Shown here piece by piece: positions 11,132 through 38,867 of a stretch of 64,000 bases of DNA. The notes below the pieces were generated by a model. That model had not been told where the DNA came from, did not search any database, and was given only the letters and a program-made list of their open reading frames with translations. Made by a program: the position numbers and the translations under genes. This DNA comes from a virus (Duplodnaviria > Caudoviricetes), in the IMG/VR virus record IMGVR_UViG_3300029982_000009. One strand, 5' to 3'. The first letter of the stretch is position 1. The number at the start of each line of letters is the position of its first letter.

Positions 11132-11346
11132 TGCGAAAATTGTTCTAAAACTATAAGCTGAGTGGTTTTCCATGCAATTCCCCATAATTCTGAATGGCCA
11201 ATAATTCCCGAAGGAAAAAATTTGGTTGGAGTTAACCGAGTGAATTCTTCCGGCTCATCACCGATGCTTGCAATATACGCATAGCCGCCAAACCAATAGC
11301 ATTTTGCATTTGGATAAATCGCTTTAACCTGCTCTTTGTATGTCAT
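11128..11346 (-). CDS. Small paralogue, IYPxA...AW family
   Basis: MTYKEQVKAIYPNAK...IAW...LEQFSQ. Confidence 0.7.
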   Translation of the reverse strand: MTYKEQVKAIYPNAKCYWFGGYAYIASIGDEPEEFTRLTPTKFFPSGIIGHSELWGIAWKTTQLIVLEQFSQ

Positions 11347-11567
11347 TCTGTGAATTTGTCTATCATATCTTCCGCAATTTTTGTATATGCGTTTTGCCAA
11401 GCGGCCTGCTCGTCGGCATACAACATACTAATTGCCTTATCATATTGCCCATATGAATCAACGTATTCTTCTCGCGGATCCGAGCAAATTATTTGGAAGA
11501 AATAATTATGCCATTCAATACATTTTGAATTTGGAAAAATCTTTTGAACTTGTTTTTTGTAATTCAT
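11343..11567 (-). CDS. Small paralogue, IYPxA...AW family
   Basis: MNYKKQVQKIFPNSK...EQAAWQNA...IDKFTE. Confidence 0.7.
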   Translation of the reverse strand: MNYKKQVQKIFPNSKCIEWHNYFFQIICSDPREEYVDSYGQYDKAISMLYADEQAAWQNAYTKIAEDMIDKFTE

Positions 11568-34022: not shown

Positions 34023-35342
34023 ATGGTTGAGATGAATCACAATGCGATGGTAGCACTAGTCACCCTTAAGAATGCGGGATTTGAATCCTACTTCGCGGGT
34101 GGTTGCGTGCGAGATTCACTGTTGAATCTTCCGGTTCATGATTGGGATCTGGCCACGAGTGCAACTCCTGATCAGGTCACCGAATTGTTTTCTACCTCGA
34201 AATTGGTTGGTAAGAATTTTGGCGTTTCGGTTGTTAATGTGAATGGTGAGCAGTTCGAAGTTGCAACCTTCCGCGAGGATGGTGCGTATTCTGACAATCG
34301 CCGCCCGGATTCTGTTAAGTTTACAACGGATCCTAGGGAAGATGTTAAGCGCCGTGATTTTACAGTCAATGCACTTCTGATGGACGAATCGGGCAAGGTA
34401 TTTGACTTTGTTAATGGCCTTGCCGACCTCGAAAATAAGGTTTTGCGCACGGTCGGCAATCCTAGCGATCGGTTTCAAGAAGATGCTTTGCGCCTGCTGC
34501 GAGCCGTTCGATTTGCAGCTCGTTTGGGGTTCATGCTTGATCCGCTTACCGTGTCCGCAATGACATTGCGTTCGAAGGATGTTACGACTTTGCCCGCTGA
34601 TCGTGTTGCTGGTGAACTGGCAAAGATTCTTACTGGCGGTAATGTACAGGTAGCTTTTCAGACAATGGACACCACCGGTTTGCTAGTTCATTTTATGCCG
34701 GAACTGTGCAATATGCATGGGGTTACGCAGAATTCAATGTGGCATCCGGAAGGCGATGTGTGGCAGCATACAATGAAGATGCTTTCTATGCTCGAATCCG
34801 GCTGCTCTCTTACGTTGGCGCTTGCAACCTTGCTTCACGATGTAGGGAAGCCGGTCACAGCAAAGACAAATGAAAAGACCGGACATAATCAGTTTCACGG
34901 GCATGAGCACGTTGGGGCTCGTATGGCTGAACGGCTGCTTCGTGATTTTCGGTTTTCAAATGAAGTTGTCGGCACGGTGTCGTCTTTGGTTGAAAATCAT
35001 ATGCGGTTTTTTAACACGGAAAAGATGTCGTTGTCAAAGATGAAGCGGTTTGTTCGTATGGAAAATTTTTCTGAACTGCTTGAACTTAACCGGGTTGACA
35101 GCCTTGGTAGTAATGGCGATCTCACCGCAAACAATTTTTGCCGTGGGTTTCGCGACAACATGAAGGATGAACTTCATCCCGTTCGTTTGCTCACCGGAAA
35201 CGATTTGCTTGCTATGGGATTTAAGGCAGGCCCGGTATTCAAGACTTTGCTAGAAGCGGTCGAAACTGCTCAACTCGAAGGCGTAGTTACTACAAGGGAA
35301 GAAGCGGTAGCGTTGGTTACCGCTTCTTCCGGAAAGGTATAA
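34023..35342 (+). CDS. cca: CCA-adding tRNA nucleotidyltransferase with HD domain
   Basis: GGCVRD, DWDLAT, EVATFR, RRDFTVNA, EDALRLLRAVRF, LLHDVGKP. Confidence 0.92.
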   Translation: MVEMNHNAMVALVTLKNAGFESYFAGGCVRDSLLNLPVHDWDLATSATPDQVTELFSTSKLVGKNFGVSVVNVNGEQFEVATFREDGAYSDNRRPDSVKFTTDPREDVKRRDFTVNALLMDESGKVFDFVNGLADLENKVLRTVGNPSDRFQEDALRLLRAVRFAARLGFMLDPLTVSAMTLRSKDVTTLPADRVAGELAKILTGGNVQVAFQTMDTTGLLVHFMPELCNMHGVTQNSMWHPEGDVWQHTMKMLSMLESGCSLTLALATLLHDVGKPVTAKTNEKTGHNQFHGHEHVGARMAERLLRDFRFSNEVVGTVSSLVENHMRFFNTEKMSLSKMKRFVRMENFSELLELNRVDSLGSNGDLTANNFCRGFRDNMKDELHPVRLLTGNDLLAMGFKAGPVFKTLLEAVETAQLEGVVTTREEAVALVTASSGKV

Positions 35343-36852: not shown

Positions 36853-37072
36853 GTGTGATAAATCCGAGGTGAATTACCACTTCATTGTGAAAACTTCCTT
36901 GAAGATCGTTAAAGATGATCGGGTAGATAATAAATGGAACGTTATTAAAACCTACGATTTTTCAAATAGTCGAAATCCATGCGACGAGTGTATTCCTCCT
37001 ACGGTTATTCATTCGTGCTCTACAAAAAAGGAAGCAGAAGATTGGTTATTGCTCGAAAGATTAAGTATGTAG
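36845..37072 (+). CDS. Small LSE-tail family protein
   Basis: ...TKKEAEDWLLLERLSM. Confidence 0.6.
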   Translation: MNRCDKSEVNYHFIVKTSLKIVKDDRVDNKWNVIKTYDFSNSRNPCDECIPPTVIHSCSTKKEAEDWLLLERLSM

Positions 37073-37100
37073 TAATAAGTCCGAATCCTTTCTGATTCGG

Positions 37101-37142
37101 TGGTGGAGGCGGCGCATGTTGATTATCGCTTCGTGCGCCCCC
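37101..37142 (-). ncRNA. Putative tRNA-Ala/tmRNA acceptor minihelix ending in CCA
   Basis: GGGGGCG...CGCCTCC-A-CCA 7-bp stem with G3:U70, followed by hairpin CCGAATC-AGAAAG-GATTCGG. Confidence 0.45.
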
Positions 37143-37343
37143 AATTTTAAATATGAAAAATAATATGATTTTATGCAGTTGATTTAAAAGAATTAAGATG
37201 GTATCGAGCTCGAGGATAGAAATCGATATCCTGAATGGAGTATCACCGATTGCAAATATTCTTAAATTAGACTTATTTAAGGTGTATCATATTTGTAAGG
37301 CGCAAATACCAACGTTCGATATCTTCTTAATATTAGGAGTGAT

Positions 37344-37625
37344 ATGCGACAATTTTTAATCGATTTTCTGAAAGCAGTAGAAGCCGATATTCCGCCGCCG
37401 GCGCGTTGCCATCATGTATTGACCTACGCTAGATATGGTAGTAATGACACCGGTTGGGAAGATAAGCTCGCTCTTCAAATTAATGATGCCGGAGATTTTA
37501 AGTGCTTTTTCCTAGAGGATTCCGACTTGTTAGATATACCTAAATTAATAATCGAAATTAAAGAGAGTTTGAATTCATCAGACACCGGCCAATTAGGTGT
37601 TAGTATTGGGCAATATGTAAAATAA
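37344..37625 (+). CDS. Hypothetical protein
   Basis: 93 aa with AGGAG RBS. Confidence 0.6.
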   Translation: MRQFLIDFLKAVEADIPPPARCHHVLTYARYGSNDTGWEDKLALQINDAGDFKCFFLEDSDLLDIPKLIIEIKESLNSSDTGQLGVSIGQYVK

Positions 37626-37679
37626 GTTGTTGCTATATTTTTATTATTGTTGTATACTATAAATATTGAGGAAATAAAA

Positions 37680-38339
37680 GTGAATATTAAGGTTAATTGG
37701 AATTCGATTGATTCGCTGAAAGGTAAAGTTCGATATTTAAAATCTAGAATTCGAGCGTTAGAAAAGAATGGTCTAGGAGCGGAGAATATCGTTAGGCAGG
37801 GTCCAAAATTCGAAGCATATAATTCTATATGGAATTCCGATATTAGCTCGATTTATGAAGATTTAGAATTATCAAACGAAAAGAAATATTTTGTGTATGC
37901 TCACTTGAATCCATTGTTTGATCTTGATTTAGAAAAAGCAAAAGACGCGTTTGCCGCTAGCCTGGGTATGGAGTATGTTCCTTTTTATATAGGAAAAGGA
38001 GTAAATGATCGTGATAAAAATTCGCGGCGAAATGAAACACATCGAAAAATTTTGCAATCTATAAATTCGTTAAATGAAAAGCATATAGTATTTCGAGTTA
38101 AAGGAAGTTTAACTGAAGCAGAAGCATTTCAAGCTGAATCTAAATTAATCGATATTTTTGGACTTTTAACTAATGGTGGTTTATTAACTAATTTGGATGA
38201 AGGGCATCATGCAATACTCAGAAAAAGATTATATCGGGATCATCTTAAGACATTGTGTACTAATTCAGTCGGTTATGCAAAAGTAATGAAAGAATTGTAT
38301 TCGAAACCAATTATGATCAACGAAAAAAAATTTGCATAA
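37680..38339 (+). CDS. GIY-YIG (LEM-3/Seg-like) homing endonuclease
   Basis: YFVYAH...PFYIGKG..DR, EAEAFQAESKLI, LTN; GTG start after TTGCTA-17-TATACT promoter (37630-37658). Confidence 0.82.
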   Translation: MNIKVNWNSIDSLKGKVRYLKSRIRALEKNGLGAENIVRQGPKFEAYNSIWNSDISSIYEDLELSNEKKYFVYAHLNPLFDLDLEKAKDAFAASLGMEYVPFYIGKGVNDRDKNSRRNETHRKILQSINSLNEKHIVFRVKGSLTEAEAFQAESKLIDIFGLLTNGGLLTNLDEGHHAILRKRLYRDHLKTLCTNSVGYAKVMKELYSKPIMINEKKFA

Positions 38340-38340
38340 G

Positions 38341-38694
38341 TTAGAGTCGTACGAAGCATGAATTTCTTTATGCGGACCGGAGTTCAACTCTCCGCGCGTC
38401 CAAAAGAATACTGAACTAGTTAGATAGTTTCGTATTAGATGGATGTGGTGTTACACCCCAGTATTCTACTAGGGCGCGTCACGGTTTCGACGGATAAATG
38501 AAAGTCATGTGGACGGCTTGGGTCTTTGTTATTTTCGCCCATAATTGAAAAATGATATGTATAATTGCCGATTCAATCGTCAATGGCGCGACCAAGATTT
38601 TTACGTACCCTGTAAAAATTAGCAATCGCGAGCTCGCACTAGCCTAAAAACTGTGCGCCGTAGGGTGACCCCGCCTATGTAAAAGAAACGGGGT
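38341..38694 (+). ncRNA. ssrA: Circularly permuted (two-piece) tmRNA
   Basis: T-arm CGGAG-TTCAACT-CTCCG plus CGCGTCC-A (38378-38402) precedes the 5' strand GGGCGCG-TCACGGTTTCGAC (38472); G3:U70; tag ORF 38567-38647; pseudoknots on both sides of the tag. Outer ends approximate. Confidence 0.9.
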
Positions 38695-38705
38695 ATACAA
38701 ATTGT

Positions 38706-38867
38706 ATGAATACTGAATATACATATGAAATTTTGCCACCTATATTAATATGCGATAGATGGCTAGTTTATCGCTTAGATTATCGAGGGCTCGCCCAATT
38801 TTTACGAGTATTTGATACTGAAATCGAAGCTAAAAATTATATTTTGATAGAAAAATTATCCGAATGA
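38706..38867 (+). CDS. Small LSE-tail family protein (53 aa)
   Basis: Manual translation ...FDTEIEAKNYILIEKLSE; ATGA overlap with next gene. Confidence 0.6.
   Translation: MNTEYTYEILPPILICDRWLVYRLDYRGLAQFLRVFDTEIEAKNYILIEKLSE

Follow-up and report, generated by a model that had tools for sequence, protein, structure and literature searches.

A conserved two-hairpin element beside a phage tmRNA locus: a candidate antisense RNA to the tmRNA of a likely Terriglobales host

Locus, relatives and conservation

All credible genes between 32.7 and 41.3 kb of the window (the whole 64,000-nt stretch of phage DNA analysed here) were on the plus strand. They ran from a CCA-adding enzyme gene through several small ORFs and an ORF ending at 37072 to the element, which started 2 nt past a stop codon, and onward through a 93-aa ORF, a GIY-YIG-type homing endonuclease gene (37647-38339) and a tmRNA to an RNase T-like gene. 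The early promoters of this phage are sigma70-like, and a plus-strand candidate promoter resembling them followed the element. A similar plus-strand candidate was found at the matching place in the related contig L019 and ahead of the tmRNA in the related contig L007. Three variants of the element were available, those of the window, L007, and L019/L020, with the following features.

34023-35342, plus strand: CCA-adding enzyme gene, heading the operon that ends at the element
37074-37080, plus strand: conserved 7-nt lead-in from the stop of the upstream ORF to hairpin 1, invariant in the window, L007 and L019/L020
37081-37100, strand unassigned: hairpin 1, invariant throughout in all variants, with 7 perfect base pairs closing a 6-nt loop
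37101-37114, plus strand: 14-nt block, unchanged among the three variants and perfectly antisense to the Terriglobales tmRNA 3' end including CCA; its minus-strand reading is ACCA together with the 3' strand of the acceptor and 3 nt from the T stem
Opening 7 nt of this block: single-stranded linker, predicted unpaired at 0.57-0.96
37108-37142, plus strand: hairpin 2, with a lower stem of 37111-37114 with 37136-37139, outer pairs of 37108-37109 with 37141-37142, covarying pairs 37115:37135, 37116:37134 and 37117:37133, a next pair 37118:37132, and an invariant apical loop
37101-37142, minus strand: the 42 nt read as an "alanine minihelix" (sequence confirmed), with G3:U70, A73 and CCA on an acceptor register of 7 bp
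37143-37152, plus strand: weak U-containing tail after hairpin 2 (number of U: window 4, L007 4, L019 3)
37293-37322, plus strand: sigma70-like promoter candidate after the element
37163-38559, plus strand: segment absent from L007, containing the 93-aa ORF, the GIY-YIG-type endonuclease gene and the tRNA-like domain of the window tmRNA
38313-38738, plus strand: the phage's own permuted (two-piece) tmRNA, with an acceptor stem unlike the element's and no encoded CCA

The original prediction read the minus strand of 37101-37142 as a stand-alone alanine acceptor minihelix with an encoded CCA and its own terminator, and its description of the sequence held. The minus-strand letters were as it gave them and occurred as a single copy in the window, they can form the 7-bp stem, G3:U70 included, ahead of A and CCA, and a hairpin with a 7-bp stem and a 6-nt loop came directly after the CCA. 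The element was GC-rich within AT-rich surroundings (36% GC), and its distance to the permuted tmRNA, put at about 1.2 kb, was 1171 nt. G3:U70, A73 and the 3' CCA were present and invariant in the three variants. A generic version of the pattern (a 7-bp stem with at least four GC pairs, then NCCA) occurred four times in the window, the plus-strand mirror of the element included, so the pattern on its own was not rare.

Conservation in relatives, which the original prediction had made a test of its claim, was borne out by L007, L013-L015, L019 and L020. Contigs L013-L015 carried an element identical to the window's, and L007, with 97.7% identity over 3.2 kb, had one change within it. L019 and L020 were more distant, with a homologue of the 93-aa protein that was 63% identical; there the stem and loop of hairpin 1 were unchanged, as were the 7 nt ahead of this hairpin, the 14 nt that come next, the apex of hairpin 2 and the last 7 nt, and the middle of hairpin 2 was changed. 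In all, 34 consecutive nucleotides, loop and linker included, were invariant across lineages whose neighboring protein shared 63% identity. When the window was aligned with L019, the element block had 95% identity, the highest in 1.3 kb, with 60–82% in flanking coding sequence and 0–35% in other non-coding sequence; the best-conserved stretch of this neighborhood was the ~70-nt block 37074-37144.

No copy of the element was found in the distant syntenic relatives L001, L009, L010 and L012, two of which represent tmRNA-bearing lineages, and a search for the 3'-end 7-mer in L189-L192 had no match, though three of these contigs end too early to judge. Among GenBank phages there was no relative of the region or the element. 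In IMG/VR, a pattern search that fixed the positions variable among the known variants had no match, a scan with the CCA enzyme found no relatives, and a tmRNA-tag pattern matched the L010 lineage only. One metagenome scan returned only the same contig. A further relative, P0002, had 78% identity. The longest contig bearing the 93-aa protein was ~293 kb, and the relatives originated from peat samples. Given the pattern of conservation and the absence from distant relatives, we consider the element real, under selection and confined to one clade.

The tmRNA side of the locus was variable. The left edge of the segment absent from L007 was 20 nt from the element, and a 14-nt direct repeat (13/14 identical) was found at its two edges (37154-37167 and 38546-38559). 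The counterpart in L007 (3792-4086) held only a promoter and a different tRNA-like domain, the acceptor stem of which was that of the host tRNA-Ala, and the tag-coding part of the tmRNA was common to both from 38560 on. This difference in cassette content looks as if an endonuclease had driven the co-conversion of part of the tmRNA gene, a process by which homing endonucleases would exchange the tRNA-like domain of a tmRNA among close relatives. In L012 (14664-15440) the tmRNA was abutted by another homing endonuclease gene, unrelated to the first (phrog_314, E 1e-38), which suggests a hot spot for homing at the tmRNA locus. In the window, the acceptor piece of the tmRNA (38395-38405) had the discriminator A followed by AAA, with CCA encoded in L007, L010 and L012; the CCA-adding enzyme gene lay 3 kb upstream of this piece. 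The extreme 3' end of the CCA-adding enzyme gene also had structure of its own, with a strong hairpin in the window (35287-35332; -28 kcal/mol, plus strand) and another hairpin at the equivalent place in L010 (11311-11337). In L009, where no tmRNA was found in the locus, a tRNA-Met gene (11305-11379) began within the last codons of the CCA-adding enzyme gene.

Folding and strand

The original prediction had allowed for a competing fold, and this was the minimum-energy fold of the 42-mer in the window (-14.4 kcal/mol vs -13.7 for the best acceptor-register fold). The predicted probability of the acceptor register was 0.23 in the window, 0.996 in L007, where it was the minimum-energy fold, and 0.009 in L019, where it cost +4.0 kcal/mol over the minimum-energy fold. 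Minimum-energy folds of the minus strand differed among the three variants, and those of the plus strand shared one hairpin 2 (RNAalifold -24.2).

Covariation, also named in the original prediction as a check, was found at three adjacent pairs, all part of the inner helix by which the competing fold is extended. They did not decide between the folds, since they fit the shifted helix and also an acceptor stem with a 3-nt bulge; they were incompatible with a 3-bp relic of a T stem. From a hand-registered alignment of the three variants, we read the plus-strand states of these pairs (window/L007/L019) as C-G/U.G/U-A, A-U/A-U/U-A and U.G/U.G/C-G, so that all nine of the nine cells pair, and the same variable pairs gave three C.A mismatches on the minus strand. 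Two of the three went through G.U states that pair on the plus strand only. This argument for the plus strand agreed with gene orientation and is suggestive rather than strong, because it draws on only two independent events in three variants. In the other direction, the G3:U70 pair of the minus strand is an A.C mismatch on the plus strand.

Annotation tools did not recognize the element. Rfam had no match in 37000-37260 up to E 10, which also left no sign of a T-box riboswitch, and ARAGORN called only the tmRNA at 38313-38738 in the window and nothing at the element. There was no T arm, and no more than 3 bp could play the part of a T stem; the element was not recognizable as a tmRNA or as a tRNA-like-domain-only (TLD-only) tmRNA. 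We found no sigma70-like promoter conserved on the minus strand across the variants. Intrinsic termination on the plus strand was also poorly matched: hairpin 2 had an apical region of 13–17 nt and a tail with only 3–4 U, and together with its tail it did not pass a plus-strand terminator scan, whereas the clear terminators of this phage have tight loops and long U runs.

The claim of a stand-alone minus-strand gene with its own terminator was not supported: the covariation was in the inner helix, the G.U states pair only on the plus strand, every flanking gene is on the plus strand, the T arm, the Rfam or ARAGORN signal and the conserved minus-strand promoter were all lacking, and the U run of the supposed terminator was interrupted. 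On balance the evidence from structure, strand and context leans toward the plus strand.

Correspondence with host tmRNA termini

The nearest named bacterial relatives of the phage CCA enzyme were Acidobacteriota, and from these relatives together with the peat origin of the related contigs the host is likely a member of Terriglobales (Acidobacteriota). The minus strand of the element, taken as acceptor stem plus ACCA and three more bases, was an exact match to Terriglobales tmRNA termini over the 7 nt of the 5' end and the 14 nt of the 3' end. The first 7 nt of the tmRNA in three Acidobacteriota genomes equaled the 5' arm of the element (37136-37142), and the 3' end of the tmRNA in genome G002 equaled the 14-nt block (37101-37114). 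A 17-mer including this block was found in 208/301 genomes of the order to which G002 belongs, mostly as a single copy, with ~0 for a reversed control. Two of the genomes counted, G030 and G091, are unpublished; leaving them out gives 206/299, and no claim depends on them. Thirty of these loci were tmRNAs of 349–396 nt that began with the 5' start of the element. With 208 of 301 genomes matching at the tmRNA 3' end against ~0 for the control, the specific content of the element is far from chance.

The host tRNA-Ala(UGC) had a different acceptor stem, and the phage tmRNA alleles of the window, L007, L010 and L012 differed in theirs at positions 4–7. In a blastn comparison of the G002 tmRNA with the window, the two best matches were the tRNA-like domain of the phage tmRNA and the element. 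The original prediction had judged the stem to resemble bacterial tmRNA ends and not the end of the phage's own tmRNA, and it was right in this, given the exact host-type match and the different stems of the phage tmRNAs.

For the plus strand, of five 3' ends tried, the host tmRNA end had the strongest predicted duplex. Contiguous complementarity extended over 14 nt for the host tmRNA, 8 nt each for the L007 phage tmRNA and the tRNA-Ala of the host, and 7 nt for the window tmRNA after CCA addition. The element also had the traits expected of an antisense seed, namely a perfect 14-nt complement, a linker predicted to be unpaired, and invariance of the block while the middle of hairpin 2 covaried.

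Two contigs carried related sequence. L192, a short contig from a related phage, had a tmRNA T arm, acceptor strand and CCA (1185-1236) of the Terriglobales type except within the T loop. Since a phage can thus carry a host-type tmRNA 3' end, the match of the element may reflect an ancestral phage tmRNA allele and not the host's. In the IMG/VR contig L021 (2940-3135), an ssrA 3' fragment flanked by a 22-nt direct repeat preceded 7 nt identical to the opening of hairpin 1, and the identity between L021 and the phage element spanned 21 nt. The arrangement in L021 raised the possibility of hairpin 1 being the terminator of the host ssrA, which we rejected for lack of support. The 30 Terriglobales ssrA loci carried other flanks; a junction 15-mer with 15 matches in 401 Acidobacteriota genomes was in ssrA context in 0 of 10 inspected; and an 18-mer with at least 123 genome matches had no tRNA-like (T-loop) context among the matches listed.

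Candidate functions and comparison with known systems

Weighing structure, strand and context, we ranked a plus-strand antisense RNA first, ahead of a minus-strand mimic, a purely structural element, and a DNA-level site or micro-ORF, in that order. The first of these, to which we give a probability of about 0.42, is a two-hairpin RNA of ~70 nt (37074-37144) that would be antisense to the tmRNA 3' end of the inferred host. The case for it, built from sequence comparison and predicted folding, consists of the identity to host tmRNA termini, the conservation, the covariation compatible with the plus strand, and the genomic context. Such an RNA would form the 3' end of an early operon starting with the CCA-adding enzyme gene, ahead of the next promoter and the tmRNA locus. 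The 7-nt linker between the hairpins and the 7 nt that open the hairpin 2 region would together provide the 14-nt complement of the host tmRNA 3' end, and the 3' arm of hairpin 2 would be the complement of its first 7 nt; the "alanine minihelix" would then be the mirror image of this antisense sequence. The linker may dock onto the free ACCA end of the host tmRNA or its precursor, after which the RNA would invade the acceptor stem and block maturation or alanylation. The phage tmRNA would presumably be spared, as its different acceptor stem limits pairing to 7–8 nt.

Several points count against the antisense RNA. The RNA would need to invade its target, an acceptor stem of 7 bp rich in GC, and the U tail after hairpin 2 is poor. 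The invariant nucleotides would be needed equally by a minus-strand acceptor mimic, G3:U70 is lost to the A.C mismatch, and the complete invariance of hairpin 1 is unaccounted for.

A more ambitious scenario is that the sense-strand small RNA pairs with the host tmRNA at its CCA end and acceptor strand and shuts off trans-translation, leaving rescue to the phage tmRNA. The different acceptor stem and the different, longer tag of the two-piece phage tmRNA would suit it to take over ribosome rescue in this way. We regard this whole chain as decidedly doubtful; if true, it would amount to replacement of a host quality-control system at the RNA level.

Known RNAs offer partial parallels to the proposed antisense RNA. 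The UGGN bulge of T-boxes pairs with NCCA, and retroviral primer-binding sites complement a tRNA 3' end. Like these, the plus-strand block starts with the complement of ACCA and runs on into the acceptor strand; the element differs in having no T-box architecture, Rfam match or nearby reverse transcriptase, and in a proposed target that is a tmRNA and a proposed outcome of inhibition rather than sensing or priming. Bacteria also have trans-acting small RNAs derived from 3'UTRs, which the element resembles in its position at an operon 3' end and in its order of 5' hairpin, exposed seed and terminal hairpin with a U tail. It departs from them in that its U tail is short and its proposed target is the end of a stable RNA, not an mRNA. 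No phage antisense RNA directed at tmRNA came up in our literature search.

The same conserved nucleotides can be read as a minus-strand small RNA with its 5' end at 37142, CCA at 37101-37103 and then hairpin 1, acting as a mimic or decoy of the host tmRNA acceptor stem. We consider this unlikely, although it comes closest to the antisense RNA. Possible targets would be AlaRS, RNase P, or a nuclease or modifying toxin directed at the CCA end or the acceptor stem. The original prediction had also listed EF-Tu and SmpB; given how tmRNA tRNA-like domains work, neither would be expected to bind, as the mimic has no T arm or D-loop analogue. A mimic would explain why the match to the host tmRNA termini is exact through the full alanine identity set (G1-C72, G2-C71, G3:U70, G4-C69, A73 and CCA), why these nucleotides are invariant in all variants, and why G3:U70 forms a pair on this strand only. 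The minimum-energy fold of L007 is the acceptor register, and hairpin 1 with its conserved U-containing tail was terminator-like in our scan on the minus strand and on that strand only. Set against this, the RNA would be antisense to all neighboring genes, no conserved promoter was found and the upstream DNA of L007 and the window diverges beyond 20 nt, the acceptor register has a probability of only 0.009 in L019 and 0.23 in the window, the inner-helix substitutions become C.A mismatches, and neither Rfam (even at E 10) nor ARAGORN gave a call.

Francklyn and Schimmel reportedly found in 1989 that synthetic minihelix-Ala and microhelix-Ala are substrates of AlaRS. The minus strand of the element shares with these a 7-bp acceptor helix, G3:U70, A73, CCA and the want of an anticodon. 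It differs in being natural, in having no T stem-loop stacked on the acceptor helix, and in an acceptor register that competes with the shifted helix and loses in two of the three variants.

A phage parallel is mycobacteriophage DS6A, for which PMC4131195 describes a TLD-only tmRNA and, citing Mao et al. 2009, the inhibition of tmRNA by similar tRNA-like-domain fragments, a precedent that favors the mimic. As in DS6A, the element is phage-borne, derived from the tRNA-like end of a tmRNA, without a tag frame, and could disturb host trans-translation. DS6A retains the whole tRNA-like domain, whereas the element retains just the pair of acceptor strands with 3 nt of T stem, is recognized by no covariance model, and belongs to a phage that additionally has a complete two-piece tmRNA.

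Phage tmRNAs, two-piece forms included, are already known (PMC9004378 and PMC4131195), the former paper reporting two-piece tmRNAs in the Methylophilales phage Melnitz and in pelagimyophages. These share the neighborhood and theme of our locus, a large phage bringing its own tmRNA, but concern the tmRNA genes themselves, and the available portion of PMC9004378 describes no companion element matching host tmRNA termini. There is also a phage protein known to bind fragments of t(m)RNA (PMC11662646). Phage tmRNA genes are thus not new. What this locus adds is a complete phage tmRNA beside a conserved element matched to the termini of the host tmRNA only, whether as antisense or as mimic. On the question of why a phage brings its own tmRNA, it offers the testable idea that a phage may displace the host tmRNA and not merely add one, and if the reading of either strand were true, the element would be a new kind of phage tool against the acceptor end of a host stable RNA.

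More improbable still is a purely structural role on the plus strand, in which the element, located between transcription units, would serve for weak termination, for insulation or to stabilize an mRNA 3' end. Its likeness to a tmRNA end would have been inherited from a captured or rearranged tmRNA fragment and would have no present role in base pairing. The placement directly after a stop codon and before a promoter suits this role, as does the stable plus-strand hairpin (-17.6 kcal/mol, among the most stable ~1% of the window) with a short U run after it. Pieces of tmRNA do move at this locus, as the adjoining tRNA-like domain has been swapped among close relatives along with a homing endonuclease. 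However, the element is unlike the clear terminators of this phage and fails the plus-strand terminator scan, and terminators keep structure and not sequence, yet here 34 consecutive nucleotides are invariant.

We give the least credence, and very little of it, to a DNA-level site (homing-endonuclease recognition or recombination, or a protein-binding inverted repeat) or to a translated micro-ORF. The first would fit the 20-nt distance to the left edge of the variable segment with its GIY-YIG-type gene and the 14-nt direct repeat flanking that segment, but compensatory changes with wobble intermediates indicate RNA, and the element is present in L007 despite the absence there of the endonuclease gene. 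As for the second, GGAGG at 37105-37109, a 6-nt spacer and ATG at 37116 open a 15-codon frame (region 37105-37163), whose in-frame stop is retained in L007 and which has a TTG-started 11-codon version in L019. The frame is probably not coding: its conserved core has no synonymous changes, its sole codon changes are the paired stem substitutions, and neither start codon nor C-terminus is conserved.

Two further origins named in the original prediction were set aside. A collapsed one-piece or permuted tmRNA relic would require a standard-order gene with its whole interior lost, on the strand opposite to the phage tmRNA, and the strong conservation argues against a dead relic. An att site or its relic is improbable for a T4-like phage of roughly 293 kb with no integrase seen nearby. 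We also discarded stop-codon readthrough of the upstream ORF, as the open frame past the stop is lost in L019, and kinship with three non-coding cassettes, which had only two short strings in common with the element, in a different order.

The 8-mer ATAAGTCC was enriched in the window, with 7 copies vs 1.85 expected (14448, 24217, 29678, 29936, 37075, 45104 and 58395). Two of these copies were within promoter-proximal cassettes, and one overlapped the lead-in before hairpin 1.
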